A stretch of 64,000 bases of DNA from Botryllus schlosseri. Its lineage: Eukaryota. The stretch covers positions 36,086,001 to 36,150,000 of the forward strand of contig CM119371.1 in the NCBI GenBank assembly GCA_051294905.1. The letters are read 5' to 3'. The first letter of the stretch is position 1. Every line of letters begins with the position of its first letter. Positions 23,293-58,066 of the stretch are shown in pieces. A program made the position numbers and the translations under genes. The notes beneath the pieces are model-generated. The model searched no databases, had not been told where the DNA came from, and was given only the letters and a program-made list of their open reading frames with translations.

Positions 23293-23297
23293 TCCAA

Positions 23298-23862
23298 CTA
23301 TAGATTACTAATCTACGGATAGATACACAACTCCCGCAAAACCCGTCGTTACGCTCGGGCAAGCAGTTACTCTTAGTGCTGAGCAATCTAAAAGCAGAAT
23401 AATTGGTAGTGCTATAACTGGCGGCCAGGGCGCTGAAAATTAATAGAACTGGTCTTGATCGAAACCTGGTGTCGCACTGATTCCGGCAATACAAATTAAA
23501 ATTTTGTCAGAGCGATGGAACCACCTTAAAACAGCCCTGAAAGTCTCAAAATCGGCATCGTTCCGAACAATCGCTTGACGAAATTGGTCATTGTTATGTT
23601 CATTGTGTCGCGGCGCTGCCATCGTTAAAACAATGCCGATTTTCAGACTTTGCGGGCTGTTTAGGGGTGGTTGCATTGCCCTGAAAAGATTTTAATTTGT
23701 ATTTGCGGAATCAGTGAGACAGCAGCTTTCGCTTAAGACCAATTATATTAAATTTCAGCGCTCTGGTCGCAAGCTACAGCACTACAAATTACGCTATTTT
23801 TTGATTGCTCAGCAATACGAGACCAGGAGTTGCGTATCTATCCGTAGATTAGTAATCTATAG
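23298..23862. mobile_element. Palindromic MITE, CTATAG termini
   Basis: TIR CTATAGATTACTAATCTACGGATAGATAC at both ends, longer imperfect arms; flanks TCCAA/TCAAA. Confidence 0.85.
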
Positions 23863-24685
23863 TCAAACTGCCAGTTTTTATCTCCTGTAACTTTTCCCTG
23901 TGGGTTAAATTGTTGCCATGGCAACATCTCGTCCTAATAAAGTAATCTATATCTTTAGCGCTGGAGTAGATAACCTATCACGACTACACACATGCATTCC
24001 ATTTTCTCCAGTTCGCCTTGCATTACGGTAATATGTTTGTAGACATAGTATTTACAATAATTCAATCGGTGGGCTGTACTTTTCTGAGTTATGTTCACAT
24101 GTCTTGCGCATAACCAAGTGGTGTTCACGTTATGCTGCAACCGTTACAACTTAATCGTGGTGACAATCTTTCACACTCTTACATCTTCATTCGGCACAAA
24201 TTTAACCGGACAAAACTTTCATGTTATTGCACCAATTATCACCTGTGGTCTATTCGCTATAACAGATTATTTGGGACAGCATGTCAAAGTTGTTAGTGCC
24301 AAACCAAATGCATTGGGATTGTTCAATGTTCGCGTTGGCCCCAGAGTTTTCTTCTTGTCTTCACCTACTGCTGTTATATCATCGATAGTAATAACGTGCC
24401 CATTGTATAGGGAGATGCATTCGGAACATTGGATCAAAATTTTCCGGTGCAAACCATAAGCCCTACCACCAATCTGGACTGACTGCCAGGGTATCATTGG
24501 TCGACACCATGCCACGTTACAATTATTCTGCCCTCACATCTTGTCCTGCATTTTTCTATGTCTGCATTTTAAGTATACGCGACGCTGTCTACGGATGTGC
24601 TGATATTTTATATTGTTTACCGAGAATACAATTTGATATCTGTATATCGTGTGTCCATATACATCCGCCGTAAACAGAGATACTT

Positions 24686-27600
24686 CTACCCGCCCACACG
24701 ACTCAAGAATGTTCGATCACCGGGAATACTTTCGACGAGTTGGCTTCTGAGCATGTACACTTGCCGTTGTAGGTGCGATATCTGAAAAGTGCAGGGTAAA
24801 GGATTAGTCATTGGAGGACATAGGGATTCTTATTCTCGAAACGGGCAGAGAGCCATCTTGTCTCCAAATTACTACACGTTCGGCGCGAATTACAAGAGGT
24901 TACAAGAGAACATGTAAAAACTAAACCAGCTATCTCCTTAGTTGACGGTCAACTAATTACTGGATTGTGAGCAGCTCCAGTTCTAGTTTTCCTGGCGGAT
25001 TTTTGAAAAGTGGATAGTGGTAGTTCTAGTTGTAGTTGCGCATTTTGGACAGTGACTAGTTCTAGTTCTAGTTCTAGTTGCAGATTTTGGATATTGAGTA
25101 GTTCTAGTACTAGTTGTGGATGTCGGAAATTGAGTAGTCATAGTTATAGTTGCGGATTTTGGGGAGTGACTAGTTCTAGTCGCGGATTTTGGAAATTGGG
25201 TAGTTCTAGTTCTAGTGCTAGTTGTGGATTTCGGAAATAGAGTAGTTGTTTGTAATCATAGCTATAGTTGCAGATTTTGGGGAGTGACTAGTTCTATTTG
25301 TAGTTGCGGATTCTGGATAGTGACTAGTTCTAGTTCTAGTAGCGGATTTTGGAAATTGAGTAGTTCTAGTTCTAGTACTAGTTGTGGATTTCGGAAATGG
25401 AGTAGTTGTAATCATAGTTATAGTTGCAGATTTTGGAGAGTGACTAGTTCTATATAGTTGCGGATTTTGGAAATTGAGTAGTTTTAGTTTTAGCACTAGT
25501 TGTCGGAAATTGGGTAGTTGTATTCATGGATATAGTCGCGGATTTTGGAGAGTGACTAGTTCTATTTCTAGTTACGGATTGTTGGTAGTGACTATAGTTC
25601 TAGTTCTAGTCGCGGATTTTGGAAATTCACCAGTTCTAGTTCCAGTTGCCGAATTTGGACAGTGACTAGTTCTTCTTCTAGCTACGGATTTTGAAAAGTG
25701 AGTAGTTGCAGTTCTATTTCTGGGTGCAGATTTTAGAAAGTGACTAGTTCGAGTTCGAGTTACTGGTGATCTGTTGTGTGATATGAAATGATTTACCGGT
25801 ACATTGTTGGCCTACGTCAGCGGTACTCGACCATTTTTAGCAAAGGCCAGTTTACAATGTTTTCTTAGGTCGGTTATAACTCTCATGAAATAATTTACTG
25901 TCCTCGTGATTCAATACTGTATATAACCAATTAACCATTAAACATATACAAAGTTCTGTAAAGCGATATTAGTAAAAGCTATCAGCGAAATGTATTCATT
26001 CTTCTGTCAGCCACAGCTAGTGGGAGGATTAACAATAGTTATATATCGCTAGTTCAGAGGTTCCCAACCGGGGGGAGGGGAATCCTCACTTCGAGGAAAT
26101 TTTGAAATTTTAGGGGGAATCAATATTGTCAACAGCAGTTGTTGACTGACAACGCTGAAGCTGTGCGTACACTGCTGGCAATGTTGTCTATATCCCAATT
26201 TTTCATCGCGCGCTTTTTGATATTATAACCAATGCTCACGCAGTCTTGCTTCAGTTAGGATATTGCGGTACGTTCAGCATGGTACCATGTCAACCTATTT
26301 GTTTCATTTGGCCGTTTATGATTCACAATGACCATACAATCGGCCGTCTACAACGGTAGGCCTGTAAAGTAGGCTACAAGCTGTAAAATGTCAAATGACA
26401 AGCTCACCGAAAGTGCAAACGTTTATGATACAGACGAATGCATGTGGCAAAAAGATTTTGACTTTGTAAACAATTTTGACAAGTTTTTGACCTAACGCTA
26501 CAATTTCGACAAACTTTTGACTCATTTTGACATGTCAAAAAAAAAAACGCCTAACCTGTGAACATAATGACGGAACGCGTTTGTATACTATACTTACTTG
26601 GACAGCCATCCTACGGTAGGCGCCCTCGAATTGCTGAACGCTGATTCGACTCGCTTTCAACTCCTCGACGTCAGCTTGCAGTTTCTCAAATGTTGCACAG
26701 TCTGGGCAGTCTGACATAGAAATAATGCCGTGAACTAACCTGGTAAACTAAATGATTCTAGTTGACTAATAAGGCTAGCAGGAGCAGACCTGCGCAAACT
26801 CCGGCCCGCGAAAGTTGCTTGGAATTCAAAACATACTTTTGAGTATCGCTGCTTGGAATAAAACGATAGGCAGTATAAACTAAACCAGAACAGAAATTGG
26901 TTCGCTTGAAAGCCTGTTCGTTAATATGCCGCGATTACGCAGCCTACGTTCCTCGCTTGCGTAATCCAGGGTGTTAACCATTAAGCGAGTCACAAGGCTC
27001 CGAGTCGCAAGTCAATCTACCTTTTATAGGTTTGACTGGAGTCACGTTGAGTCCTTTTCAATTCACCACCGAGTCAAGTCCGAGTCCGAGTCAGCGAGCA
27101 GAGGGTCGAGTCCGAGTCCAAGTCATTGTGTTGACTGCTCAGTTTCCAGTTAAAATCTTGCTAAACCCAATTTTTATAACTCTGTTTGGTGATATCGAAT
27201 GGTTCGCGTTTATAACGTACTGAATTTACTCGCTTTCAGCAGTTTCTGGTCGCATTTTCAAGTACCAGTACCAATAGACGTAATCCCAATAGTGTGGTTA
27301 CTTTACTATTCTTCGAAATTACAATAAAATGTCGGTCCGTATTTTGAGAAAATGACTCGAGTCAAGTCGAGTGATCAGAAATCCGTGATTCGAGTCATGA
27401 CACGACTCATTACATCCTTGGCGTAATCCAAATTCAAAGTGAAGCGCAAATGTAGCAAAGTATGCCGTAACAATTTAAGTCACGAGAAGTCACTCTTTCC
27501 ACATAGTTTATTAGTTCAATTCTTATTTATTACCATTGTCACATTACGTATTACACGGTCTGTGCTTCAAATTGTAACATGATACGTTTCCAAATCCCTA

Positions 27601-30600
27601 ATTCGTAAAACAAGGTAATCAGTGCCCGTTTTTACTATGAGATATCGACATCAATAGATGATGAACGGGCATGTCAAACTGAAATTCAAACAAGGTATGG
27701 AGCACTAATAAAACTGAAAGCTTCGCTCAACACGGCGATTTCACCAAGCTGCACACTGTTACAAAGGCAGCGACCAAGACAATAAGCTTTTGAATAGTAT
27801 ATTCATATTGAAATAAACCAGAATATTTTCGGCTGACACTCGTCAGGGGTAATCGTCAGCAACTAGTAGAGAATCGGAAAGAACATTGTATATATCAACA
27901 ATCGTATCACAAAATATGACGTCACCGGCATGAAAGAGAGAGCGCTCAATGTACTATCTTTAGGTGGTACACAAACTCCTTTTGTTGACAGAGTTTGGGT
28001 TGGTGTGTTTCGATAAAAGTCGACTCCAAGGCACACAAATGGAAGTGACGACGCGAAATCTGGCATCACGATAATTATTCGCGCAAATCGGATTATCCAA
28101 CAGAAGTTTGCCGATGGCAGAATAAATGGCCTGCTGACTAGTTGCTGAGGATTACCTCTGACGAGTGTCAGCCGAAAATATTCGGGTTTATTTCAATATG
28201 AATATATTCAATTGTATGTTGAAGTTCTGTACCTCCAAAAAGCTCGACAATAAGCTTTGTAGTATCCCCAATATACATTTTAATGTCTTAATAGAAAAAC
28301 GTGGATAGGGGTTTTAAAGAGAGTTTGGAATGTATCGAATGGAACGGAAAATAAATACAATTTTTTGTTAATTAACCTTCACTTTCTCATTATATAATAA
28401 TCAACTCATTCCTGAACAGGATTTATAAACAATGTAATGCATTGCTTTCAATTCGGAAATAAAATTATTACCCCGGAGAATATAACTAAATATTTAGAGT
28501 CGGCCCACCCCTAAGCTAGAGAAAAATGACGGTAAGCCAATTCTAACCGAATAGTGAATTGTTTTATGCTTTGACTTCAACTCTAATGCACTCAGTGCTC
28601 TTCCTGAAAATTTTGCAAGGGAAGAGCATAGCGCGAAACGACGCATTCCATTCTAATTCTGATGCGCACATATAGTCGCAGTGCTTCAGAGTCATTAGAG
28701 TTACAATGATTAGAACATAATGCCGGTATAATCTAATTTGTGAAATGTTTCTATGTTCTTATTTCAATTCTAACCTAATTCCTGAATTTCCTGAATATGC
28801 AACAGGAAAATTGAACGAAAATTTACCATTCTTCTGCTTATTGAGAATATTCTGAAGATTGATACGAACTTAACTTGATTGCCGATTCAGTTATTATTAA
28901 AATGCTGCATGCACAGCGTGTGGCTGTCTCAAAGCATCGAACATTGTCGTATACTCACGGCCGCACGTATGGTCGTCTTCTCCCAGCTTAAAGTCCGCTT
29001 CGCACGTGCAATTGTAGGTGCCGTTGAAGTTGTGGCAGCTTTGATCGCACCCTCCGTTTGATGTGGCGCACTCGTTTATATCGTGGCATCTCTCGTCGGC
29101 ACCGACCTCATACCCATCCAAACAACTGCAGCTGTAAGAGGAACGTGGGGTGTGATTTCCGCTTATTTTTATAGGTAATCGAAGAGATCTCGGAGGTGCA
29201 CAACTTCAGTGCCAAATTGAATTTATCGTTAGATCATCTATAACTGAGCAGGGACGCTCGAATCTCGGTCGTGTTCAGCATGGTATCTCATCAAAAACCT
29301 TCGTGTGCAAGTGGAAGCAGAATTGTTACAATACTTATTCAAATGGAATCGGAAACAGTAGGTCTGAAGAGTGATCGAGTATGTAGAGAATTTAAAAAAG
29401 CAGGATCGAAGGGCAGCAAACTTTTAACAGATAAATCGTTTTGAAATTTGGATCTATCCCGTATTTGGCACTATTGAAGGGCCGCATATCTTTCTCAGAT
29501 TTGAAAAGTTGAAATTCACTCTGAAATTATCCCAAAAACCCGAAATTACCGAGCAAACTCCACTATCCCACCACTTTCAAATTCTACCATTGCGTGAAAG
29601 ATCTGCTATTACGTCACAGTGTCTATTTATGATGATAGAGCTTAGATCAGTGGTTGGATTTGGGGATGGGCCAGGGTAAGGCTCGGGGTTAGGATATATA
29701 TAAGGGTTAATTTCAGGGATATATTTCGGTTCCGGGTTGGTTTTCGGGTTATCAAGTAACATGCTCAACTGTCGTTTCCATTGTGTCGCATGCTCATATG
29801 TCAGGCAACTAGTTCTTCAACCATACATTCCAGCACTTGATGCACAAGTTTGCGGGAATTATACGCTAAGTAATATTGGACTTATTTCAATTTATACTTG
29901 ACTGTGAGCCATTATTTTTATGTTAGTAAAATCGTGTCGAAATTTACTCTTCACAGAGACGATATATAAAGGTCTATGGCCAGAAGAACTCAAGGTATCC
30001 TCGTCTGACTGGTATTTATCCATGCGTTTGGCGTTAGTCTGCAAGAATTCTCTTTCCCGGTTTTCAGAAGCGGCCTTGAAATGCTTTAGACACAACTAAT
30101 ATCCCTTCTTTTCACATTCATATACAGAAATTGTCTATACCTGTTCATAGAAACAAACGACAACTGTAGTCTATTATACTTTTGGTGGCATATTTAGACG
30201 TCAATCTGCGGTTGGGAATCGCTATTCGAAACTAAGATCATACCATACCGGTTGCTTTATGTAGAGTCTGACTTACATCAAAGGTTTGGGCCGACACCGA
30301 TATAACATATTTTCGCCGGTATTCCCTACCTATATGAAAACACCAATTACTCGAATTGGAACTTCTAATTGGTGGCAGTACTTTCAAAAATATATCCAGA
30401 AGTGGTCAAAGTAAATATATAGTGAAGTGAAAGCGGAAGTTAAGCTGTGGAGTCCTGCTCAAATATAGGCGAAACCAACTGGAGCGCTTTTAAAAAGTAA
30501 AAGTCACTGACCACCTCTGCTTGCAGTACTTCGTACGGATGACTGGTAAAATCGTTTCGCAGTTTGACATTGATTTGTCGCTAAGAAAGCCTTGGACCAA

Positions 30601-33600
30601 AGACCTGATTAGGAACACCGGCTTCCATGACTTCCCCGTTTGGCGTTCATTATTGCCGGGTTAGCTTGGAAGGGGTGTTGCAAGACTTAGGAAACCTTAC
30701 AAGGCTATATCTTGTGCCTTATACCTTGTGCAGCGGCATATGCGCATCATGCACGCATGGTATGCATATGCACAGATCGTGTGAATGTATATCATGAGTC
30801 TGTGCATATGCCGCAAAAAACATCAAAGACAGAAATAAATAACATCCTGTCCTACCTGAAAGATCCTGGTGTGTTCCGGCAGACGTGATGGCACCCACCG
30901 TTGTTTGTGGCACATTCATCGATATCTGTGATATGCAAAACAAAGACCTATGACATTAGTGAGTATGATGCGTCACACCAGAGCGAAATGAATAGCGCAC
31001 AAAAGAATCAATATTGGAAAGGTATATCGATTGTTGGAGATGGTCCCAAATCGGTGATTCCCAACTGCGGCTCTGATTGACCTCTAAATAAGCCACAAAA
31101 ATATAATGAACGACAGTTGTTGTTTGTTTCTATGAATAGTTATGGTCAATTTCTGTATACCAATGCTAAAATGAGGGATAGTAGTTAGTTACAGTATGTC
31201 TAAAGCCGTCCAAGGCCGCTTCTGAAAACCGGGAAAGAGAATTCTTGCAGACTAGCGTCAAATGCATGGATGAATACCCGGCAGACAAGGATACATCTTG
31301 AGTTTTGCTGGTCATAAATTTAAACAAGTCAAATATTACTCAACGTATAATCCCACACGAACTTGTGCATAAAGTGCTGGTTTGTATGGACAGCTATCAC
31401 ATAACGCATTAATAGTATGTTGTAGTAATGATATGGAATTTCAGTTTATTTCAATGTATAACACTCGCCAATCTGCGACTTTCGATGCTAAAATAACCGA
31501 TATAGAATCTCTAGAAGTCTTTGTGCATGCTTTTGAATAAGCTGGATGGTGAGAGCCAGAGGTAGCCTAGCTACCTTCAAATTGTCGTTATGGGTAGCCT
31601 GACTTGAGTGTTTTTATGCGGCTCCGACATCCGAAAAGGTAGGGAACCACTGGTCAAAATAGTCTGAATTGGTACCGTACTGAGTGAAAGTAATTCTCTA
31701 GATTTTTACTCAATTACAGATATATGCAGCTATTTCTAAGACCAGTCAAAACGAATGCAGTTAGACATAGAAAAGATCGGGAGAGTACTCAAGCAGTTTT
31801 TAAAAGGTTGAGAAATCATGTAGGCCTGATATTATTTACCAGTTAAAGAGCTTCTTTGAGGTAGAGAAAATTAAATAGTATATTCATATTGAAATGATCT
31901 CGAATACTTTCGGCTGACACTCGTCAGGGGTAATCGTCTACAACTAGTAGAGAAGGGAGAAGAACATTGTTTATAATCAATCGTATCACAAAATATCACG
32001 TCACCAGCATGAGGTTCGCGTACCATCTAAAAACAGTACATCGAACGCTCACGTATTCGAAATTTCATGCTAGTGACGTCATATTTTGTGATGCGATTGT
32101 TGATATACCATATTCTTTCCAATTCTCTACTAGTTGCTGACGATTGCCCCTGACGAGTGTAAGCCGAAAATATTCGGGTTCATTTCAATATGGATTTACT
32201 ATTCAATATTAATTAACTGGAGCTGGCCACTGTTTAAGTTGCCGGACAAATCTTCTCTACTAACACCAAATGACTAATGAACCCACAGATGGCAGCCAGT
32301 TTCGAAAATATACTCAGTTATGCCGACACAGAGACTATATCCCCGATACTTTCAGGGATTTCACTCAAATTTAAACTTATCTCAAAACCAATTTCAGTTG
32401 TACGAAATTCATCACTTAAAAAGTATGCGACAGGGTTCTAATGACTCGAGTCACGATTTTCTGACGATTCGACTTGACTCGAGTCATTTTCTCAAAATAC
32501 GGAAATGACTCGAGCCAATCTATGTATTGACTCAATTCGGACTCGAGTCATTGCGCATTACTAGAACCAAGTCATATGACTCTAGACTCAGACAGCCAAG
32601 ACCGACATTTCATTGTAATTTCAAAGAATAGTAAAGTGACCACACTATTGGGATTTCGTGTATTGGTACTTGTACTTGAAAATGCAACTAGAAACTGCTA
32701 AATCTGAGGAAAATTAGTACATCACAAATGCGAACCATTCGATATCACCAAACAGAGTTATAAAAAGTAAGTTTAACAAGACTTTAACAGGAAACTGAGC
32801 CGACAACACAATAATTTGGAATGGGACTCGAGTTATAATACCATGACTCGGATTCGACCCTCTGCTCGCTGACTTGGATTCAGAGTTGATTGGGTGATGA
32901 AGTGAAAATGTATCGACTTGAATCGAGTCAAAACTTCAAAAGTGAGATTGACTTGCGGCTCGGAGCTTTGTGACTTGGTAAAAGGAACTGACTCTACAGC
33001 CCTGGTCGTTCCTACACAAGACTCACCCACGCATGTCTTATTATTCCCTTCGCCGAATTCCCTGCCCTGGAAGCAGTAGCATCTGAACCACCCGTCCATG
33101 TTGGCACAGCCGTCGCTGCAGCCAGAGGTGTTTCGTAGGCATTCGTTCACATCTGAAACGCGTTTGAAATGTATTTCAGGCAAACGAAAGTATATAGCAG
33201 TGGTTCTCGATTGCCCTCTGTGCAAGTTTCCTGCCGGTCCGCCAGATATATTCGAATTTTATACCTCAATTCCAAAATGCAGGAAGCTGGGAGCTTTTCC
33301 ATTTAATTAAAGAAATAAAACATCAAATTCTAAATTTATTTAGAAGTGTGGGACATGTTATTTCAAATAGGCTTTTCGAAGTATCGAACTTTAATATTAT
33401 ATATTGTATATTGTTATATATATATGTAATATTGTCAATATTATGTCACAACAACAAAATTCTTACTATATTTCGAACTTGGCTGACCTCATTTACTGGT
33501 GTTCGCTCCTGAAGAGAACCAGTCGAAAAGCTTCGAGCGAATTAATTTGGCAACATGAATGTATTGTTTGCTGCAACAAATTATTTTGTATGGTGTCGAA

Positions 33601-48600: not shown

Positions 48601-51600
48601 CAGATTTGGACTGTAGGCTTAAATTAGGTAACCTAACAATTTTATCAAGTAGCCAGTGCGATTGGAGAAAAAAAGTCATTTTTAAAGAGCCCTACTGTGC
48701 ACTGTACAGATTGGCTCATGTAGCACTATAAAGTTCTCCTGTAGTATTATCAGAAAAACCAAAAATTAGATTAATAATAATAAGAACTGGGGTAGGAAAT
48801 TGAATTAAATGCTAAATAGAAATACACACAAAAAAAATCTGGCTCAGTTCATATCAAACCATTGTTCACTCTCCTAAACATTAGAACGGCAAATGTATGT
48901 ACAGCTTGACTCATTTAGAACTATACAGTTGCCCTGTAGCATTTTCAGACAAACCAGAGAATAGATTAGAATTAGAATTAGAGCATTGAAGCATTTCACA
49001 AAATAGATTAAAATCAGATTCTCGGCACTTCTAGGCAACTGGAATGATCCGGAGCAGTGGTTCCCAACCTTCTTTTAGACACGCCCCCCTTTATGATAGT
49101 GAAAAATTTCGTGCCCCCCTTATCGTCATATCACAAAATCCAAACGGGATGCTGGCAACCTCAGCAGATCGTTTGATGGCATGGAAGGTTATTACTGTTG
49201 ATGAGAGAATAAAAAAATATGAAATTCGGTCTATATATAGAGAAACACGCATGGGTTGGAGGTAAATCGCGTGGATCGCGATATTTTTTTCAGTTGACCG
49301 CTTCTTCGCGCCCCCCGTCAGATGCTTTCACGAAACTTGCGAACCACCGGTCTAAAGTTATCTAGATGTCCAAGTCTATAGGCCTACAGCTCCCCTTGAG
49401 TCTACGCCTGAATTTCTGTCAGCTGCGGTACATTTCCGATCTCACCTGTACAGTTGTGCCTGTCAGCTGCGATCGTGTATCCAGGATTGCACGTGCAATG
49501 GTACGCTCCGCCGTTTCCGATCAGGTTGCAGTTCTGTTCGCAGCCTGCGTTGTCCACCGCGCACGTGCGGTCTGAAACATTAGCAATTTTGTTATAGCTA
49601 ATCAATATCACACAGTTCCCAATCGCCGCCAACTTCTCAAGCTCCTAACACCCACAGCCCACATGGATTGAAAATATTGTGCACACATTCAAAAATTCAC
49701 AGGTTACATACTGGTGTATTAGTTTCACGACAACTGAAAACATTTCCAACGATTTCGCTTATTTTTAGTGTGATCAGTATGGCAGGTTTTTGTTGCAGTC
49801 AAATCCATGGAGAGTGGCACTTATTTTTCACAAAAGTGGCACTAAAAGGGATATTGATGGACAAGTTCCGTGAAACTATTAGGGTGCAAGATACTCGAAT
49901 CGTTCCGTATCAAAAGCACTGGAGCAAAACTCAATGTTGGCGATTTCAACAAAATCAATAGCCTGAAGAAAATTGGGCGCTTCTTCGATATACCCCTGAG
50001 ATCAAAATCTATAAACGGAAAAATAAAGTCTTTTTGTGTTTGGATTGGGATGGAATTGGAGTTGTGGTTACTGGATATTAGGGTTGGAAGTAGGTTAGGG
50101 TTAGGGGTGGTAGATATTAGGGTTGTGGGGGAGGGATATTAGGGTTGCGAGTGGGAGATATTAGGGTTGGAGGATGACGGATGTTAGGGTTGGGGGATAA
50201 AATATATTAGGGTCGGGGTTTCGCACGCTAGTTCGGGGATTTTATCACCCCTAACCCTAACATGTCATTCATACAACCTTAATATCTGTCATCCCTTAAC
50301 CCTAATATCTCTCACCCACAACCCTAATATCGGGATACCCTAACCCCAACCATAACCCTGACCCACTTCCAACCCTAATAGTCCGTACCCAACACGAAAA
50401 AATAATTTATTTTTCAGTCGATAAATTTTGATATGTTTGATGTCGGGGGTATATCGAAGAAGCGCCGAAGCTGTCTAGCCTGATTGTGAGTCAAATCAGG
50501 AAGGACCTCAAATTTAAACGACACTGAAATAATTAAGCGATATATTTACATGTAGTTGCATGAAGAATCGAAAAAAGCACAAAAAGTTGCATGACAAAAT
50601 GAAGATTCCTTTAAACGGCATAAAACACCATGCTACATCACTTATGGGTATTTACGAAGCTGTCGAAAGTTGTTAAAAAAGTCGCCCTAGGGATCAGTTA
50701 TTTGTCGTTACTCGCGAAGATGCATATTGCAATTTCGGATGGAGATACAAATAACCACAAAAACTAAATAAAACCTGGTCCAAAGCCACTTTTGACATGG
50801 TGTAATAAGCAAGAATTGCTTGGAGTCTCATCTTGAATACAGTGTGTCTCATCTTACCCTCACATCGGGGTAAGTTGAGACATTTGAGCAGGGATGTGCG
50901 GGCCAAGAAATCCAGAAGTATGTTGTTCAATATAACTCAAGACATAGTCATGAATAGTTCAGATAACAAGCTTTTCATTGATACCAAAATTAACCATGAG
51001 AAGGCAATACTCTTCGAGTGGCGTTGAAATATCAGAAAAGTGTCTCATCTTGGCCGCCTCTCCCCTGCGTATTATCTCCTAATATCTTAGCCCCATTGAC
51101 TGACCTGTACAATTTCTTTGGTCTGGAGACAAAATCAGACCAGGTTGCAGGCATTCGCATTGGTAGGATCCGTCGGAGTTGGTACAGTGGTCTTGACAAT
51201 CACCGTTGTTGGTCTCACACTCGTTTACATCTGAAATTTAGTATCTGTATTTTATTCACTGTTTATTTTTATACTGTGATACTACTCTGATCCTGATATG
51301 GAATATAGGGAAGATGTGGGACCTATGACACGGAAAATCCAAAATAAACTCTGGCCTCGAAACCTTCAGCCGAGAACCGCAGACTTTTGCTCGCCCAACA
51401 CTTTGGCCCAAGTTCTACCCTTTGGTGAACATATCCAGGAATCTCCGACTTCTCAAAATATGGTTATAAACGTATAAAATTTGTTGTTCCAAATTTCCAA
51501 ATACTCAAATGTCACGAAGTTTCTTGCTGTCGATTATTATCTAAGCCACAACACGCCAAAGAAGACGTTTGGTATCTACCTTCAAGAAATGAAACGAATA

Positions 51601-54600
51601 ATAACTCAAATGTCGTCATAAAATGATGTCTCATTTCAAGCGACAACTTACAATATTTGAGGTTACACACATATTGCCCATATAACAAACCAAGACTTCA
51701 TTCCTTTACAAATAATTTTTCAACGCATTGAAGTAATACAATTTATAACTGTAGTCAAAGTCAGAACATGGCAAAAGCATTCTAGAAAACAAAACTTACA
51801 TACCGGTATTTAAATGGATTGAAAAATAATTATATTGTAAACGATCAATACCATTTTGAGGTGAGATATAAGACAAATAGCTATTCTGTTCGTTCACATA
51901 AATCTGTCGCTGAACCCATGAAATTACTTTAAGAAACCATGTCGTATTTTAGCCATTCATCAGGACTTGTGCATGACATATCAAGGCTTGGGTACCTGTT
52001 CTGCCATAGCACAGAATGCGAGTTCCAGATGGCTCGGTATGGCAGGAAAATAAAACAGGTTAAAATGACATGCGGCTTTTTTGTCTTTTCGCATTTCTAT
52101 CGTTATATGATTAGTAGGTTAGTCGAAACTATTTTACTTGATTTTGATTTGGTGCATCATCAGTGCCAACTTTATAACCACCACTGGTGGTGGTGACGAC
52201 ACATGTCGATTATGCAACTACCGCCTTTTACGACACCCTGCACCACAATCTTAAAATCACTATCTCTTTGCTCTTACCGTAACACTGAGCTTCTCCTTTT
52301 GGCGCGTAATATCCCAGCCTGCACGAACACTGAGGCATGTTACCGTCAGCCATGCTGCAACCATACTTGCATACATCGTTGATATCATCGCAAGAAGCTG
52401 TCATGAAAGCACATGCGGTCCTCAAAATGGAGTATCGATGTATCTCATATTTTATACCTTTGTAGAACAGTAAATATGAATCCTGTGTATTTTATATTGA
52501 CAACAGGAGCACTAACACAGGAAAGAACGCGACAATTACTCATTCTGATGGGAGGTACACAAAAGTCAGGGCAGAACACGGAATAATTATAATTAATATG
52601 AAAAGCAGGGCTGCGTAATGACTCGAATCATGACTTCACTCGAGTCGCGATTTTTGGGGACTCGATTTGACTCGAATCATTTTTCAAATGAATTAAATGA
52701 CTCGGCTCGACTCAAGTCAATTTTTGTATTGACTCCACTTGTACTCGAGTCATTGTGCGTGACTCGAACCAAGTCATACGACGCGAGACTAGGGCGGCCT
52801 AGACAGACAGTTCACTGTAACTCCGAAGAAGAGTAAAGTCACCACATTATTGAATTTCGTCTATCAGTCCCGATACTCGGAATATTGGCCAGAAACTTTT
52901 AAGATTAAAGAATATAAGATATTATGAATACAAGCCATTCTATATCACTCGAGCAGAGTTGAAAAAAGTGAGTTTATCCGGATTGAACTGAAAACTGAAC
53001 AGAGAACATAACGACTTGGACTCGGACTCGAGCCACAACACTATGACTCGGACTCGACCCCCCACTAGCTGATTTGGACCCAGTCCTGACTCGGTGGTGA
53101 ATCAAAAAAGACTCGACTTGACTCCATTCAAAACTACACAAGTGAGATTGACTTGTGACTCGGAACCTTGCGTCTTGGTTACAACCATGGTACTCAGTGT
53201 CAGCGCTGAAGTAGCGTCATAAATTTCTATACTCAAATTCAAGTAACTCTGAATCACTTGAAAATGCTGCAATCATAAAAACGATTATGATCACAAATCA
53301 CGATTGCCATATGCCTGTACCGAATAAGATTACTTGGTGACTTCTACTTATGAACAGTAAGGTTGTTCACAAAAAAACTTTTCCTTCAGATTTCACCGGC
53401 TACTTGATAAAAGAGTTAGGTTGGTTAAAAAGAACGCTGCACAACAACTTTGGCTCAATTCCAACCAGTAGAAACGAGATTCTTGCAGCAGAAAGTTTTG
53501 AATTTATCCTTAAAAAATAAAAAATGAAAATTTTTAAAAGTTTTTCCTCAACCCCATAAAATTGCTAGGCTGTCAGTGGAGAAGATGCACATCAAATTTG
53601 GCTTAATTCCAACCTCTAGAAGCGAAGTTATTGCGGTAGAAAAATTTGGATTTGAATAAAATAGTATTTACGGTGACTGACTCTCTAATTATTTGTTATA
53701 AAATCATGGAATTAGAAATTATTCTACTGCAAAAACTTCGCTTCTAGTGGTTGGAATTGAGTCAAATTTGGTGTGCATCATCTCTACTGACAAATTAAAA
53801 ATTTTATGGGCTCGACAGACAAATTTTGAAATTTTATTTTTCAATGATAAATTCTAAACTTTCTACTGCAAGAATCTCACTTCTACTGGATGGAATTGAG
53901 TCAAAGTTGGTGTGTAGCATTTTTTTAACCAACCTAATGATTTTATCAAGTAGCCAGTGAAATGTGAAAGAAAAGTTTTTTTTGAATAGCCCTAATGAAC
54001 AGGTTGAAAGAGCTTACCGACAACTTTATACACAAGCTCGAATCCACGTCTCGTGCTGCTACGATCCGACACGAAATTGACTATCGCGTGCGATCCCGGA
54101 ACGACATACGAGTTTCCGCTCAAGTCTCCGCACAACTTCGGACCGATCTGTTCCCCAGAGCGGGTCTTGATGGTGACGTAATCCATGACGCAGTAGGAGG
54201 AGCTCTCGAGTCTGCAAAAGCATCACTGGGTTAGGTTTAAGGATGACCGTAACAATCCCAGTATAGATTTTGATGATTCAAATCGATAATAGCAGCAACT
54301 CGGTTCAAAAATGAAACTCTTCTTTCAGATCTCACAGGCTACTTGATAAAATTGTTAGGTTGGTTAAAAAACGCTGTACACCAACTTCGGCTCAATTGCA
54401 ACCAGTAAAATCGAGATTCTTGCAGGAGAAAGTTTTGAATTTATCATTAAACAAATAAAAAAATTAAATTTCAAAAGTTTTCTGCCGACCCCACGAAATT
54501 GTTAGGCTGGCAGTAGAGATGGTGCATACCTAATTTAGCTCAATTCCAACCACTAGAAGCGAAGTTATTGCAGTAGAAAAATTTCTAATTCCATGATTTC

Positions 54601-57600
54601 ATAATAAATAATTAAATAGTTAATCACCGTAAATACTATTTTATTCAAATCCAAATTTTTCTACTGACCCCATTTTACAAATATCGGTACTGATTGACAA
54701 AATGTTATTAATCGAAGTTAAAATGAAATGCCTGTCTTGGCCGTCCTAGTCCCGAGCAGGGTTGTAACCAAGTCACAAGGTTCCGAGTCGCAAGTCAATG
54801 TCACTTTTATCGTTTTGACTCGAGTCAAGTCGAGTCATTTTCAATTCACCCCCGAGTCAATTACGAGTCCAAGTCAGTGAGTAGAGGGTGGAGTCAGAGT
54901 GATAATGTTATGACTCGAGTCCAAGTCATTGTGTTAGCTATTCAGTTTTCAGTTCAATCCACCTTTTTCAACCCTGCTCGAGTGATATAGAATGGCTTGC
55001 ATTCATGTCGTAATTTTCCTCAGTCTTAACAGTTTCTGGCCATATTTTCCGAGTATCGGGACTGATAGACGAAATACCAATCATGTGGTGACTTCACTAT
55101 TCTTTGAAGTTATAATGAATTGTCTGTCTTAGCCGTCCTAGTCTCGAGTCATATGACTTGGTTCGAGTCATGGACAATGACTCGAGTACAAGTCGAGTCA
55201 ATATAGAAATTGCGTCAAGTCAAGTCAGAAAAAAAATCGAATCATTACAACCCTGGTTGTAGAAGATTAGCATATATATTCACGCTGACATTAGTACAAT
55301 CCATACTCACTGAAATTCTGGAAAAGTGATTAAAATCTGATTGCCCGTCGTCGGAGTGATCTCGTACGTGCAGTTGACTCTGTTTGGGTAGTTGAGAGGG
55401 TACAGAGGCGATTGCAGACTGCCTGTAGATTTCGTTAGAGGCTCCAAGCATTGTCCAGTAAACTTATCGAGCGATTCTGTAAAGAAAGGTAATGAGCCAT
55501 GGCAGACTATGTCAGCAATCCCGTAAGGATAATGGCTACAGGCTTGTACAAAGTACTGGATTTCCATAAGGAATAACTAAAACTATTCACTTTTCGAAAC
55601 TAAAACCAAAACTTGATATAATGACCTTTAAAGATCCGCAACTAACTAAAATTCAACTAGCTAATAGCTGACATTATGCCTTACAATACTAATTGCAAAG
55701 GAGCTGCGAAATATTGGATATAATATCGGCAATTCGAAAGGACAGGGATTCAAGTTTGAAATTGGAGGGTTCCGACCCAAAAAACCCACCCACTGGTCAC
55801 GGCACTGTAGCCTACGTACCCGTAATGATGACTCTGAGCTAGCAATGGCTGCAAGAACATCACACAGCAGGAACTTATCACTTTTTAAAATCACCAAGAG
55901 CTGGAACTAGAACTATTCAGAAACCAAGTAGTTAGTTGACTGTCTAATTGGAACTAGAACTACTGACTTTTCAAAGTCCATAACTAGAAACAGAACTTGA
56001 ACTACGGCACTCAGAAAGCAAGTAGTTAGTTGAATGATAAACTGAAACTAGAACTACTCACCTTGCAAATTCTACAACTAGAACTAGAACTATTAAAATA
56101 AACAAGTTGTTAGGTGACAGTCAGACTGGAGCAAAAACTACTAACTTTTTAAAATACACAACTAGAACTAGAACTAGAACTACTCGAAAAACAAATCATC
56201 GTTTGTTGACTGTCAAACTGGAATAAGAGGACTAATAATTTTCCAAAGTCCGCAATTACAACAAGAACTAGAACTATTCATAAAAAAAGTAGTTATGCGA
56301 ACTGTCAAACTGGAAGTGGAACTAGAGTATTTACTTTTCAAAATCCATAACTAGAACTAATTAGTTCTCCGTCAGCTAACTAGAATGGTAGTTGGTACAA
56401 GTCTGAATTATGAATGCCAAGCATTTCTTACTCGGGGTGAACTGTAGAATGAATCCGCTTTTGCTGAGCGTCCTGTCCGACACAAATCTGAGTGTGGCTT
56501 CATTTCCGTCAGTTTGGATCGTTTTGGGAATGTCGTATCCACATAGTTTTGCTATCGACTGACCGTACGTCGTGCTCTGACCGTTGTAGATTTGGAGATA
56601 ATCAAATCTGTTAGGATAGAAGGTAAAATGAGTGATATTATTGCGACTTTTGGTAGAGATTAGCACCAGTTTCGATGTGAAGACTTGATTTGAAGACTTT
56701 CGATTGATTCGCGCGTTGACATAACATTGCTAATATAGTATTGACGATTTCTACGCCACATTTTGAATATAATTTCTGTCATTAACGGCGATGGGTTCGG
56801 ATTTGGGCATGATACAAAATAAATTCTGATTCTGGTTTATACTCAAATGTTTTATTGTATAGAATGGTACACGTCGTGGAATAGAATACACACCACGCTT
56901 ATTCTAATTCGTATCCCGATTCCAGTGCCAAACCAAAGCAAAAAGTTTATCAAGACTTGTCAAGACGTGGGAGTTCCCCAATCTCTGTTTACTAGGAAGT
57001 TATCGATCCGTAACGTGTCAAAGAACTATTCCATTATTTTCTGCCTTGCCAGGATCAGTCACCTTGAATCAAATCAAAACTTGAACGTTGGTTGTGTACT
57101 TCATGATGGTAAATAAAATCATCTATTTCCCAAAATTCACTGGAATGCATGTAGGCAAAAAGTTTGGAACCGCTCATATTATTTGGTTACCCGCATCTGC
57201 TATGCTTCTCCACGTCGAATTCGATGAAGGATATTTGCATTCTTTCCGATCCCGTAGCTCGCAGATGGAAGACACAATCCGATCGTGACGGATAACCGTT
57301 GTCAAAGAAATAATTTATGGTTTCTGTATTGCCGTTCGCCACGTCGAATGTACGATCGCAAATATCTTCCGGGACCGCTGAAGTGGAAAACCAAATTTGG
57401 CGAATTGGGCAATAAACCTCGGATTTCAAACTCAGTAAGGGAGTCGGGTAGTAAGTAAGTATTTGGAGTGCGCAATTATGCAATGTGCATTGTCATTTGT
57501 CACTAGTTTGCTCAAGTACTTTCACGCTACTTCCACTTCTATTTAATAGTTTTCGGACCAAAACTGCATAGGCTACTTTTACACTTGAATAGGTTTGCAT

Positions 57601-58066
57601 TAGCCTACTTATACGCGCGGCACGCGTTCAGGAATTTAAAATTTTCTAGAAACTTGCACTTGGGTTAGTTATTTTGTTTAGATATCATCAGGATGCATCT
57701 TTCAATTTCAATTTCAATTTCAATTTCAATTTCAATTTCTGATTGACGACAAATGATGATGTTTCTCCACACTTATTGAGATACTATGTTACGGTATACT
57801 TCACTACTGAGGCTTCTCGATTTCCATAGTCTATTCGAAATAGATGCACGATACCTTTGAAATCGTTACTTTTGCTCATAATTGAGTAGATATTTTGGTA
57901 TTATGTATATTTCTACTTGTATACCAATGCTGAATACTTTTTAACATCCCCGTTAATTAGTGACAGGTACTCGAAAATCGACATTCTGGTGCAGATGGAC
58001 ACGACGTTGTTACATACCTTGAGCAAATCCTAGTAATGTCACGGCGATAAGGAATTGAATTTCCAT
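24686..58066 (-). CDS. Secreted CUB-CUB-(EGF)16-coiled-coil extracellular protein, 24 coding exons, ~1000 aa
   Basis: Exons (minus): 58066-58018, 57377-57191, 56607-56432, 55476-55311, 54211-54018, 52397-52278, 51230-51105, 49571-49446, 46286-46158, 45004-44858, 43747-43599, 42762-42666, 42210-42086, 41143-41067, 39702-39615, 38276-38159, 36501-36403, 35715-35593, 34387-34259, 33152-33027, 30925-30856, 29131-28959, 26710-26598, 24781-24686; all GT-AG and phase-compatible (3003 nt, ends TAG). Signal peptide [20 protein letters not shown] motifs (YPSRSDC, FDVE, DYLQIY, KLCG, FVSD, GF); repeated D(I/V)(N/D)EC cbEGF units; C-terminal CPDC then heptads. Confidence 0.9.
24975..25765. repeat. Minisatellite (~30-36 bp unit, TAGTTCTAGTTGCGGATTTTGGAAAGTGAC-like)
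   Basis: Many degenerate tandem units inside the last intron of the CUB-EGF gene. Confidence 0.9.
26967..27420. mobile_element. hAT MITE family B copy
   Basis: CAGGGTGTTAACC...TTACATCCTTG; perfect TSD GCGTAATC. Confidence 0.88.
27791..28210. mobile_element. Long-TIR MITE family D (ATATTCATATTGAAAT...GCTGACACTCGTCAGGGGTAATCG)
   Basis: Inverted arms; related copies/fragments at ~15887-15962, 31873-32204, 35455-35520, 41398-41595, 45099-45138, 47688-47836. Confidence 0.8.
31051..31652. mobile_element. hAT MITE with an inverted partial copy at ~29810-30170
   Basis: Termini CGGTGATTCCCAAC...GGTAGGGAACCACTG; 31100-31390 is reverse-complement-similar to 29820-30165. Confidence 0.7.
31873..32204. 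mobile_element. Long-TIR MITE family D copy
   Basis: ~140-bp inverted arms forming a near-complete palindrome. Confidence 0.82.
32431..33004. mobile_element. hAT MITE family B copy (opposite orientation to 26967-27420)
   Basis: CAGGGTTCTAATG...CTACAGCCCTG; body reverse-complement-similar to 26967-27420. Confidence 0.8.
34470..35105. mobile_element. Harbinger-like palindromic MITE family E, degenerate copy
   Basis: Shares CTACTTGATAAAA / CAATTCCAACC motifs and inverted-arm structure with 53361-53992. Confidence 0.65.
36715..38060. repeat. Minisatellite (~40 bp unit, AAATTAGATTAGAATTAGAGTTATAGCTACACAGTTTTTTCC-like)
   Basis: About 30 degenerate tandem units filling most of intron 36502-38158. 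Confidence 0.92.
38492..39257. mobile_element. hAT MITE (CAGGGGTGTCAAAC termini) inserted in a family E fragment
   Basis: TIR CAGGGGTGTCAAAC...GTTTGACACCCCAG; perfect TSD CTATAGAA. Confidence 0.88.
41596..41890 (+). mobile_element. tRNA-derived SINE family 2
   Basis: tRNA-like head with GTTCGATCCCC B-box; body GACCAAAGACCTGATTAG...GCAAGACTTA...AACCTTACAA shared with a 5'-truncated copy at ~30590-30835. Confidence 0.7.
42933..43279. mobile_element. Probable Tc1/mariner (pogo/Tigger-like) MITE
   Basis: Imperfect TIR TACCGTAGGTTTCCAAATATAGTACGCA...TGCGCATCATATATGGAAAATTACGTA with TA ends. Confidence 0.5.
46365..47590 (+). mobile_element. tRNA-derived SINE family 1, split by a family C MITE
   Basis: 5' half 46365-46526 and 3' half 47449-47590 match 17157-17438 colinearly. 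Confidence 0.88.
46527..47448. mobile_element. hAT MITE family C copy
   Basis: TIRs as at 17645; perfect TSD CTAGAAAG. Confidence 0.9.
48187..48692. mobile_element. Harbinger-like palindromic MITE family E
   Basis: GGGCTCTT...AAGAGCCC termini with long imperfect inverted arms. Confidence 0.7.
49976..50466. mobile_element. Palindromic element with internal degenerate TTAGGG/CCCTAA arrays
   Basis: 21-bp TIR GGCGCTTCTTCGATATACCCC; left arm ATATTAGGGTT repeats, right arm AACCCTAATAT repeats. Confidence 0.8.
52606..53189. mobile_element. hAT MITE family B copy
   Basis: CAGGGCTGCGTAATG...GGTTACAACCATG; reverse-complement-similar to 54757-55255. Confidence 0.82.
53361..53992. mobile_element. PIF/Harbinger-like palindromic MITE family E
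   Basis: GG(G)..TTC...GAATAGCCC termini, TAA flanks both ends, ~300-bp inverted arms; half copy at ~54301-54666. Confidence 0.8.
54757..55255. mobile_element. hAT MITE family B copy
   Basis: TIR CAGGGTTGTAA...TTACAACCCTG. Confidence 0.85.
55575..56385. repeat. Degenerate AACTAGAACTAG minisatellite related (reverse strand) to 24975-25765
   Basis: Recurrent AACTAGAACTAC / AAATCCGCAACTA / TAGTTGACTGTCAAACT motifs. Confidence 0.75.
57700..57739. repeat. (TTTCAA)n microsatellite
   Basis: About six perfect hexamer units in intron 1 of the CUB-EGF gene. Confidence 0.9.

Follow-up and report, generated by a model that had tools for sequence, protein, structure and literature searches.

On the minus strand of the window, by which we mean the whole 64,000-nucleotide stretch of Botryllus schlosseri DNA analysed here, lies a gene of 24 exons that runs from an ATG at position 58066 to a stop codon at position 24686. 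Its open reading frame of 3003 nucleotides encodes 1000 amino acids with a single terminal stop, in the order signal peptide, two CUB domains, 16 EGF units, a CPxC motif and a coiled coil, and we are close to certain that the product is secreted with this architecture. The gene is real, expressed and spliced. We hypothesize, at roughly even confidence, that it represents, in ascidians, an animal family of secreted glycoproteins that would act as trimeric bridges in the extracellular matrix. The family itself is apparently unnamed, ancient and built from known parts.

Gene structure and transcript

The exons and the 3' untranslated region, with the basis of each assignment, are as follows (window positions).

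58018 to 58066, minus: exon 1, start codon and signal peptide (residues 1-16, A-x-A end); hydropathy, Styela match from residue 5
57191 to 57377, minus: exon 2, first half of CUB1 with Ca-site Tyr45 and Glu73; Pfam CUB, E 1e-7
56432 to 56607, minus: exon 3, second half of CUB1 with Asp81 and Asp123; Pfam CUB, E 5e-11
55311 to 55476, minus: exon 4, linker and first half of CUB2 with Tyr167; Pfam CUB, E 2e-9
54018 to 54211, minus: exon 5, second half of CUB2 with Glu195, Asp203 and Asp242; Pfam CUB, E 6e-7
52278 to 52397, minus: exon 6, EGF1, without calcium consensus; gene model, Pfam, consensus check
51105 to 51230, minus: exon 7, EGF2 (cbEGF); gene model, Pfam, consensus check
49446 to 49571, minus: exon 8, EGF3, without calcium consensus; gene model, Pfam, consensus check
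46158 to 46286, minus: exon 9, EGF4; gene model, Pfam, consensus check
44858 to 45004, minus: exon 10, EGF5 and start of EGF6; gene model, Pfam
43599 to 43747, minus: exon 11, remainder of EGF6 and start of EGF7; gene model, Pfam
42666 to 42762, minus: exon 12, remainder of EGF7; gene model, Pfam, RNA joint 42210/42666
42086 to 42210, minus: exon 13, EGF8; gene model, Pfam, RNA
41067 to 41143, minus: exon 14, first half of EGF9; gene model, RNA on the acceptor side
39615 to 39702, minus: exon 15, end of EGF9 and start of EGF10; gene model, RNA on the donor side
38159 to 38276, minus: exon 16, remainder of EGF10 and start of EGF11; gene model, RNA on the acceptor side
36403 to 36501, minus: exon 17, remainder of EGF11; gene model, RNA
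35593 to 35715, minus: exon 18, EGF12; gene model, RNA
34259 to 34387, minus: exon 19, EGF13, partial calcium consensus; gene model, consensus check, RNA
33027 to 33152, minus: exon 20, EGF14; gene model, Pfam, RNA
30856 to 30925, minus: exon 21, first half of EGF15; gene model, RNA
28959 to 29131, minus: exon 22, end of EGF15 and EGF16; gene model, Pfam, RNA
26598 to 26710, minus: exon 23, CPxC (Cys933, Cys936), invariant Phe and first coil heptads; gene model, RNA, family alignment
24686 to 24781, minus: exon 24, coding part, with end of coil, short unconserved tail and stop; gene model, RNA, Styela match
24383 to 24685, minus: 3' UTR, at least to 24383 (exact end not fixed); contig pieces 24383-24732 (run X2) and 24597-24781 (run X1)

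All 23 introns are GT-AG. The splice check by RNA that an earlier note on this DNA had called for covered positions 22800 to 42790, that is introns 12-23, and bore out 10 of these 12: eight match an RNA joint exactly (12 and 17-23) and two (13 and 15) are one letter off, while introns 14 and 16 have no counterpart among the joints listed (439 further joints lie outside that list). For the predicted introns 1-11, the support is the 59% full-length match to the Styela protein. The joint into exon 24 is carried by 16 reads of run X23 and 477 of run X21, and RNA contigs continue unspliced beyond the stop to 24383, indicating that the transcript ends after exon 24. Intronic read depth, which arises from repeats, was set aside as a signal of the gene. 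Among the runs listed in our run search, none is on record as RNA. Over positions 54010-57400 the word share of run X1 was 0.22 and the exon share 0.21, an observation that we do not count as evidence.

A Pfam scan that took in 16 of the 24 exons assigned exons 2-5 to CUB, and each of the 10 EGF exons among the 16 to an EGF-type family. We found no Gly-X-Y run in a six-frame scan, no obvious extra domain exon in the filtered exon scan, no Rfam match, and no protease domain in the gene model, the Styela orthologue or the 3'-end RNA rows listed. The coordinates, 24 exons and domain order given in the earlier note thus stand, on the minus strand, against gene model, Pfam and RNA, as does its statement, checked by Pfam, hydropathy and the orthologue, that protease, vWA, TB and transmembrane parts are missing; its interpretation as a whole is partly supported.

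The 16 six-cysteine EGF units are contiguous, and 13 of them carry the full calcium-binding consensus. Hydrophobic 19-mers scoring above 1.2 occur only in residues 1-24 (next best 0.69), with no transmembrane segment. Tandem cbEGFs, of which there are 13 here, are seen more in structural proteins of the fibrillin/fibulin type. At 2.4 nm per EGF unit, Ca2+ would be expected from the consensus residues to stiffen these 13 units into arms of about 35-40 nm. An odd cysteine spacing in EGF6 was considered as a mark of the family and rejected, being seen in only 2 of 29 rows.

The C-terminal tail and oligomerisation

Exons 23 and 24 have no Pfam match. In the best register, 10 of the 15 a/d positions of the tail heptads are aliphatic or Phe, and across 26 family rows the Cys, Pro, Cys and Phe are kept in 25, 25, 25 and 26, followed by three heptad positions that are hydrophobic throughout; in the Oscarella member both cysteines are gone. 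An AlphaFold2 model of the Styela orthologue has a helix at 927-972. When three copies of exon 23, a 37-residue piece, were submitted to complex prediction, they scored 0.52 against 0.02 for the best control, with contact agreement of at least 88% and pLDDT of at least 73, and the predicted trimer has a Cys1-Cys4 contact between chains. In the calibration, 21 of 30 microbial homodimers (against 0 of 23 monomers) and 17 of 29 eukaryotic pairs (7 of 16 in animals; against 0 of 30 monomers) attained this mark, as did just one of the seven eukaryotic pairs lacking an older solved relative; the calibration used two copies whereas three were modelled, so that the score does not fix the number of chains and may reflect memory of other coils.

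By eye, the tail pattern CPTCxxFxxL, for which there is no Pfam model, fits the start of the NELL2 coil. The coil of chicken NEL opens with this pattern (PMC13044245), and NELL coils form disulfide-linked oligomers (PMC7083938; PMC13100127). From the model and this analogy, we propose that a parallel coiled coil, probably of three chains, would join the chains at their C-termini, and that inter-chain disulfides of the CPxC motif would staple it. Oligomerisation through the tail seems very probable on these grounds, and a trimer is the somewhat favoured state. The earlier note pictured CUB heads, on a stalk stiffened by Ca, joined into an oligomer, and in our judgement was right in this. Its description of the protein as matrilin-style holds as far as a coil is present, but the Pfam matrilin coil (PF10393) was not matched at E up to 10 in nine tails, and the pattern fits, by eye, the NELL2 coil start.

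The tail would be a candidate secreted oligomerisation module without a Pfam model, one that NICOL, CCBE1 and EMID1 may also bear. A profile of 11 family tails, run against a PDB profile library that contains a full-length NELL2 chain, returned generic coiled coils, with NELL2 absent from the best 60 of 192, and a single coral tail used as query likewise missed NELL2; the putative homology of the family coil and the NELL coil, read by eye, is not statistically supported. Searches of the Atlas returned nothing at 0.9 or above, the look-alikes EGFL7/8 (0.83) and matrilin-3 (0.78) being of lead level only. Exon 23 compared with 1.84 billion representatives gave one match, to 14 residues of a repetitive bacterial chemoreceptor-type protein, which we rejected as chance.

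NELL1 and NELL2 are secreted EGF proteins whose coil opens, by eye, with the CPTCxxFxxL pattern, forms disulfide-linked oligomers and precedes a VWC module. It is conceivable that the family acts as NELL2 does, as a receptor-clustering signal, the coil forming a trimer or else pairing two chains with one small partner (2:1), while heads or EGFs cluster cell-surface receptors. Besides the tail pattern, this reading draws on the 2:1 three-helix bundle of NEL and NICOL (PMC13044245), on the high rank of neuropilin CUB pairs in the profile search described below, and on cnidarian members, which as in NELL place a VWC-like module after their shorter coil (VWC E 3e-5, below Pfam's cut-off). However, the NELL order of LamG, coil, VWC, six EGFs and VWC is not that of our protein: NELL has a LamG domain, a coil with four cysteines near the N-terminus, five VWC and six EGF, whereas here Pfam finds no LamG, the two-cysteine coil lies at the C-terminus, and CUBs form the heads. 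Pfam finds no VWC in deuterostome members either, although the ROS1 site of NELL2 is a VWC domain (PMC13044245), and the 13 tandem cbEGFs fit structural proteins better. We consider receptor clustering unlikely as the role of this protein.

The CUB heads and their putative ligands

Both CUB domains of the window protein have the three acidic residues and the tyrosine of the Ca2+-binding CUB subset. Across the family, the Tyr/Glu/Asp/Asp site of CUB1 is kept in 26 of 26 rows, and the Tyr, Glu, Asp and Asp of CUB2 in 23, 25, 26 and 24 of 26. These residues align to those that in PCPE-1 bind Ca2+ and procollagen lysines (PMC6372009). Both CUBs, as judged from their residues, retain the putative Ca2+- and lysine-binding site, and Ca-dependent protein binding by the heads appears highly likely. 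In the mechanism that we favour, the transcribed and spliced 1000-residue secreted-type chain, with its two CUB heads, 16 EGFs and C-terminal helix, would present two Ca2+-loaded CUBs at each arm end that hold a protein ligand by its lysine side chains. Least firmly of all, that ligand might be a matrix protein, most likely collagenous, and the molecule a three-armed bridge or spacer in the extracellular matrix. We infer both ligand and function, and give structural matrix bridging an even chance of being the main job.

The same heads could belong to an invertebrate procollagen C-proteinase enhancer, whose CUB pair would bind the C-propeptide and speed tolloid/BMP-1 cleavage while stalk and coil tether it to the matrix. 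Like PCPE-1, the protein carries two Ca2+-binding CUBs side by side at its N-terminus, and their acidic triad and tyrosine are shared with PCPE-1. The residue before the first Asp is aromatic (Tyr or Phe) in all 26 CUB1 rows and in 21 of 26 CUB2 rows; PCPE-1 is also the top Foldseek match to the heads and the best match for exon 5. However, identity is about 29%, the CUB2 aromatic is Met in the window gene and Styela, and a sequence profile search of the PDB with the CUB pair ranked cubilin (top) and neuropilins above PCPE-1, so the heads do not specifically indicate collagen. PCPE-1, moreover, ends in an NTR domain and works without an EGF stalk or coil. An enhancer role is, on balance, distinctly unlikely.

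A soluble immune or scavenger protein was also weighed, its CUBs binding lectin collagen stalks (MASP/MAp44-like) or capturing plasma proteins (cubilin-like), since the structural relatives include CUBs of MASP, C1r/C1s and cubilin and the layout is the cubilin order reversed. This is quite improbable, given that there is no CUB-EGF-CUB dimerisation unit and no protease, that the single representative of each named species among the matches and the tree, which resembles the species tree, are unlike expanded recognition families, and that the family extends back to sponges. Exon 2 used alone as query found nothing (three candidates), and in a tree of CUB pairs, uninformative at depth, cubilin pairs and a CUB-CUB protease were not set apart from the family.

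Comparison with known architectures

The mismatch with SCUBE, tolloid/MASP, cubilin and matrilins asserted in the earlier note was confirmed by domain order and Pfam. Cubilin shares a coil, an EGF array and Ca2+-binding CUBs, but in reverse order, with an N-terminal coil and eight EGFs preceding many CUBs (as seen in sequence P0096). Tolloid/BMP-1 and C1r/C1s/MASP have an astacin or trypsin protease domain, whereas the window protein has none. Matrilins, defined by their vWA domain(s), resemble it, as do EGFL7/8, CCBE1 and EMID1/collagen XXVI, in an EGF array or head followed by a coil preceded by Cys, a likeness that is putative for CCBE1 and EMID1; here, there is a generic coil with no VWA match in Pfam and no PF10393, and no vWA, EMI or collagen parts. 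In CCBE1/EMID1 collagen repeats follow the coil, whereas after exon 24 we find a stop and UTR, with no Gly-X-Y run in any frame. Long cbEGF arrays, the origin of the database labels, recall fibrillin/LTBP, but the window protein is about a third as long, has CUB heads and lacks TB domains; PF00683 was absent from the Styela orthologue and nine other members. Fibrillins and LTBPs are defined by TB (8-Cys) domains among cbEGFs (PMC3308698; PMC13525746). SCUBE has nine EGFs, a spacer, cysteine-rich motifs and one C-terminal CUB (PMC10214685), against two N-terminal CUBs, 16 EGFs and no spacer here.

Distribution and age of the family

End-to-end alignments within the family run from 32 to 59% identity, with Styela clava LOC120330220 (XP_077974871.1) at 59% and Ciona LOC100178017 at 44%; 16 EGFs and the same tail are common to the tunicate orthologues. 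Counting as carriers those in which at least two CUBs precede the first EGF and the tail motif is present, we found the layout in 24 of the 120 best matches to the Styela protein (query included). The carriers are tunicates, echinoderms, hemichordates, cnidarians and sponges, a spread that overturns the proposal of the earlier note that the protein is lineage-specific. Vertebrates, amphioxus and protostomes have no carrier among these 120 matches, and the homologue search found no member in insects. The tail pattern occurs in 25 of 26 family rows and in none of 94 other proteins. Each species named among the matches has one representative, and two sponge-type members have a third CUB. Partial rows were counted apart: Desmophyllum lacks the tail, Paramuricea lacks CUBs, and Acropora digitifera has a single CUB. 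CUB+EGF matches from lamprey, Oopsacas and Ascaphus were excluded, their CUBs following the EGFs. Among 76 metagenome loci, one (L001, cnidarian-like) carries CUBs plus tail, and another (L018) was excluded for its protease tail.

A full-length tree of 27 rows, made by a quick method with no outgroup and the careful search incomplete, groups tunicates, ambulacrarians, cnidarians and sponges much like the species tree. EGF order is also kept: the median rank correlation is 0.57 across the 29 family rows and 0.07 across 85 EGF arrays from outside the family, the reference being four tunicate proteins of which three are among the 29; the EGF4-8 run is still recognisable in cnidarians, and order is weak in sponge rows (rho 0.22-0.46). 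That CUB pairs, EGF arrays and the CxxC coil were instead shuffled together repeatedly, as the CUB-only tree, unresolved at depth, the full tree without outgroup and a separate CUB-CUB-LDLa-EGF-trypsin gene in a metagenome contig might suggest, is very improbable against the three-part order with its rare tail, the EGF order kept from tunicates to cnidarians and the end-to-end alignments.

The earlier note had allowed for an already named and characterised orthologue; orthologues of the same architecture do exist, but those found bear only automatic names such as 'fibrillin-like' or 'uncharacterized', earlier Styela records reading 'fibrillin-3-like'. Our literature search found no description of the family, nor ligand, localisation or phenotype results for any member, although Whittaker 2006 on the echinoderm adhesome might cover the sea-urchin member. 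The Nematostella member (XP_048589629) was not traced in matrisome tables (PMC12549020), whose rows, as far as examined, give neither sequences nor domain strings, and where it may be listed or detected under another name. A 2023 review of echinoderm matrix suggests that non-canonical fibrillin-like proteins arose within echinoderms (PMC10381214); from its sequence distribution, the CUB-CUB-EGF set looks far older than that.

Taken jointly, and with slightly less than even confidence, we hypothesize that this is an overlooked gene of the ancestral matrix toolkit, masked by 'fibrillin-like' names and retained from sponges to tunicates, with separate losses in vertebrates, amphioxus and protostomes, and that its CPTC-coil is an ancient oligomerisation module shared with NELL1/2. 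Vertebrate signalling proteins of the NELL1/2 type would then reuse a part that first built a three-armed matrix cross-linker. Tunicates and vertebrates are sister groups, so the apparent loss would point to an altered matrix composition when vertebrates arose, and lists of conserved animal matrix proteins built from vertebrates would miss such a gene. All the parts are familiar, and the function is a proposed one. Members in Ciona, Nematostella and sea urchins make the function testable by knockout.

Gene model and domain order

The CUB-EGF gene comprises 24 exons on the minus strand (58066-24686), which join into a frame of 3003 nt encoding 1000 amino acids, with a single terminal stop. All 23 introns are bounded by GT-AG, and the coding GC content is 52%, against about 40% across the window. 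The 24-exon open reading frame and the domain order claimed in the earlier note are borne out by the exon model and a Pfam scan.

Features of the CUB-EGF protein (gene at 58066-24686, minus strand)
aa 1-16: signal peptide
aa 23-136: CUB1 (Pfam CUB in exons 2-5)
aa 147-255: CUB2 (Pfam CUB in exons 2-5)
aa 256-930: 16 EGF units (Pfam EGF types in 10 of the 10 EGF exons scanned)
aa 933-936: CPxC motif, followed by a heptad helix

Thirteen of the 16 EGFs carry the full calcium-binding consensus. The Pfam scan gave no match in exons 23-24, a hydrophobicity check of the protein detected no second hydrophobic segment, and a six-frame scan found no collagen repeat of the Gly-X-Y type.

For the region 22800-42790, covering the 12 introns from 12 to 23, we compared the model with two runs recorded as RNA and two contig sets presumed to be RNA. 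The splice joints matched exactly at 8 of the 12 introns and differed by one letter at 2, while the remaining 2 were absent among the joints listed. The last joint is supported by 16 reads in the bulk run and 477 in the single-cell run, and by 356 further reads from an allele that differs within the nine bases opening exon 24; contigs run unspliced beyond the stop as far as 24383. The gene and its splicing are established.

Allelic variation is strong at the unconserved end of the tail in exon 24 (24726, 24733 and 24773-24781), where, on our reading, Ser replaces Ile, Lys replaces Glu and Leu replaces His. Two short elements (30724-30819 and 41601-41709), each with about 1000 reads in the bulk run and loose ends on both sides, are a repeat abundant in other transcripts, and intronic read depth in the gene comes mainly from repeats. 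Tandem arrays occupy intron 16 (36864-37909, 25 copies of a 43-bp unit) and intron 23 (25021-25761, about 20 copies of a 36-bp unit).

An ancient family

Databases were queried with single exons or with the Styela clava orthologue LOC120330220, rather than with the spliced Botryllus protein. The orthologue was the one protein among 133 candidates found by aligning the second halves of both CUBs. It matches the gene model at 59% over 981 columns, sharing the 16 EGFs and the tail, and this end-to-end match independently supports the entire exon chain. In a search with the Styela protein, 8000 candidates were scored and 4546 of them passed E 1e-20; among the best 120 of these, which we examined, 24 (query included) carry two or more CUBs ahead of the first EGF together with the tail motif. 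These are 3 named tunicates including the query, 9 echinoderms that between them span the five classes, 2 each of hemichordates, sponges and named cnidarians, 1 cnidarian-like record and 5 unnamed records, variously labelled fibrillin-2-like, LTBP4, cubilin or uncharacterized. The earlier note had put the protein forward as a candidate lineage-specific one; the same layout in echinoderms, hemichordates, cnidarians and sponges contradicts this. Since the protein is ancient, the note's interpretation as a whole is only partly supported. No vertebrate, amphioxus or protostome is among the 24, though all occur among the other matches in the best 120 of 4546; this absence is suggestive only, since candidates had passed a word filter, were 535-1703 aa long and were examined within those 120.

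In a quick tree of 27 rows, built with no outgroup, the Botryllus protein adjoins Styela within a tunicate clade, which points to a source of stolidobranch-type ascidian, and the species tree is mirrored; the deeper branching of the family did not emerge from a tree of CUB pairs by themselves. EGF order is also retained, with a median rank correlation of 0.57 in 29 family rows versus 0.07 in 85 other arrays. The signal is strongest in tunicates, from which the reference was taken; cnidarians show it clearly for EGF4-8, and sponges weakly. We consider it very improbable that the same layout was assembled repeatedly and independently. The protein is one of a family of secreted modular glycoproteins that is inherited vertically and apparently has no name.

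The CUB pair of Botryllus and Styela (window 54018-57377) sits on a long branch, 1.77 versus 0.3-0.8 elsewhere, possibly reflecting a change of ligand in stolidobranch ascidians. A metagenome contig (L018:81-3146) holds an unbroken 1021-aa frame reading CUB-CUB-LDLa x2-EGF x9-trypsin; the head is the same and the stalk similar, but the tail is a protease. Two proteins matched by the Styela query, P0037 (Petromyzon) and P0105 (Oopsacas), are of secreted type with 17 EGFs and C-terminal CUB-like domains; labelled fibrillin-like or EGF-like, they represent another layout that may also be unnamed.

The protein lacks the defining TB domain of fibrillins and LTBPs, the vWA of matrilins, the protease of tolloid and MASP and the collagen of CCBE1 and EMID1; its domain order differs from that of SCUBE (PMC10214685) and is the reverse of cubilin's. 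By analogy, the nearest parallels to how it would work are a cubilin made soluble and reversed, or a CUB-headed matrilin, with a NELL-like staple. The full-text literature searched, which leaves most subscription papers and supplements outside its scope so that a prior mention is possible, contained no description of the architecture and no paper citing any of six accession numbers. Echinoderm fibrillin-like proteins without TB domains are described in PMC10381214, where an origin within echinoderms is suggested.

The CUB heads

Calcium-binding CUBs are defined by three acidic residues and one tyrosine, and in PCPE-1 the same residues additionally bind lysines in the procollagen C-propeptide (PMC6372009). 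CUB1 shows no variation at any of the four positions (26 of 26 rows), CUB2 retains them in 23-26 of 26, and they align with those of PCPE-1. This conservation is established, and from it the heads are very likely, as a sequence-based prediction, Ca2+-dependent protein-binding sites. The best match was PCPE-1 in a fold search and cubilin and neuropilins by sequence profile. An enhancer of procollagen processing, as PCPE-1 would suggest, seems to us unlikely, and a soluble immune or scavenger protein more unlikely still.

The C-terminal tail and a proposed mechanism

Conservation of the tail, with its CPTC motif, invariant Phe and hydrophobic heptads, reaches from tunicates back to a calcareous sponge, and the tail matches no Pfam family at cut-off; cnidarian members additionally contain a VWC-like module. 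For the Styela monomer AlphaFold2 predicted a helix of 46 residues, its confidence being low at the cysteines. Complex prediction with exon 23 in three copies gave a score of 0.52, versus 0.02 for the best control, with contact agreement of at least 88% and pLDDT of at least 73. In calibration, 21 of 30 microbial homodimers attained the mark and 0 of 23 monomers did; among eukaryotes, 17 of 29 pairs attained it (7 of 16 from animals; 1 of 7 for which no earlier relative had a solved structure) and no monomer out of 30. The model supports self-association of the tail, short of showing it, and does not fix the chain number.

NELL proteins have a coil resembling this tail, and CCBE1, NICOL and EMID1 may carry a similar motif. 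Within the family, 25 of 26 rows contain the tail pattern, as against 0 of 94 other proteins. The probability of meeting it by chance at a given position is 8e-7, falling to 6e-9 once Pro and Thr/Ser are required, so that about 0.06 chance matches are expected per vertebrate proteome of 1e7 residues, a figure that flatters the NELL match because NELL was picked for its fit. A profile of 11 tails against the PDB did not place NELL2 in the top 60 of 192 matches, though the structures searched include its chain; so short a match may escape this kind of test. By eye, the chicken NEL coil (PMC13044245) agrees at 6 of 6 constrained positions, plus Pro and Thr. NELLs are reported to form disulfide-linked trimers through the coil (PMC7083938; PMC13100127), or alternatively a 2:1 bundle with NICOL (PMC13044245).

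We propose that three chains would be stapled together at their C-termini, from which three arms, stiffened by Ca2+ and about 35-40 nm long, would spread, each tipped by two lysine-gripping CUBs that could bridge matrix proteins. As a whole this is the most likely reading, with about an even chance of being correct; the oligomer is a modelled one, and we infer the ligand and matrix role. A NELL-like ligand that clusters receptors would fit the tail, but the protein lacks the LamG domain that defines NELL, and we consider this rather unlikely.

Surroundings of the gene

A gene on the opposite strand converges on the CUB-EGF gene and ends at about 21189, leaving little space downstream. It is multi-exon and sulfotransferase-like (about 8280-21189, plus strand); 2 of 6 pieces scanned match sulfotransferase families weakly, below cut-off (E 0.031 and 0.063). 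The window also holds self-inverted elements of about 620 bp (53366-53986 and 34473-35101) and repeats, dispersed and each about 500 bp long, with 71-82% identity (18013-18545/46875-47448 and 32444-32979/52638-53179/54757-55222), all of which are probably non-autonomous DNA transposons.
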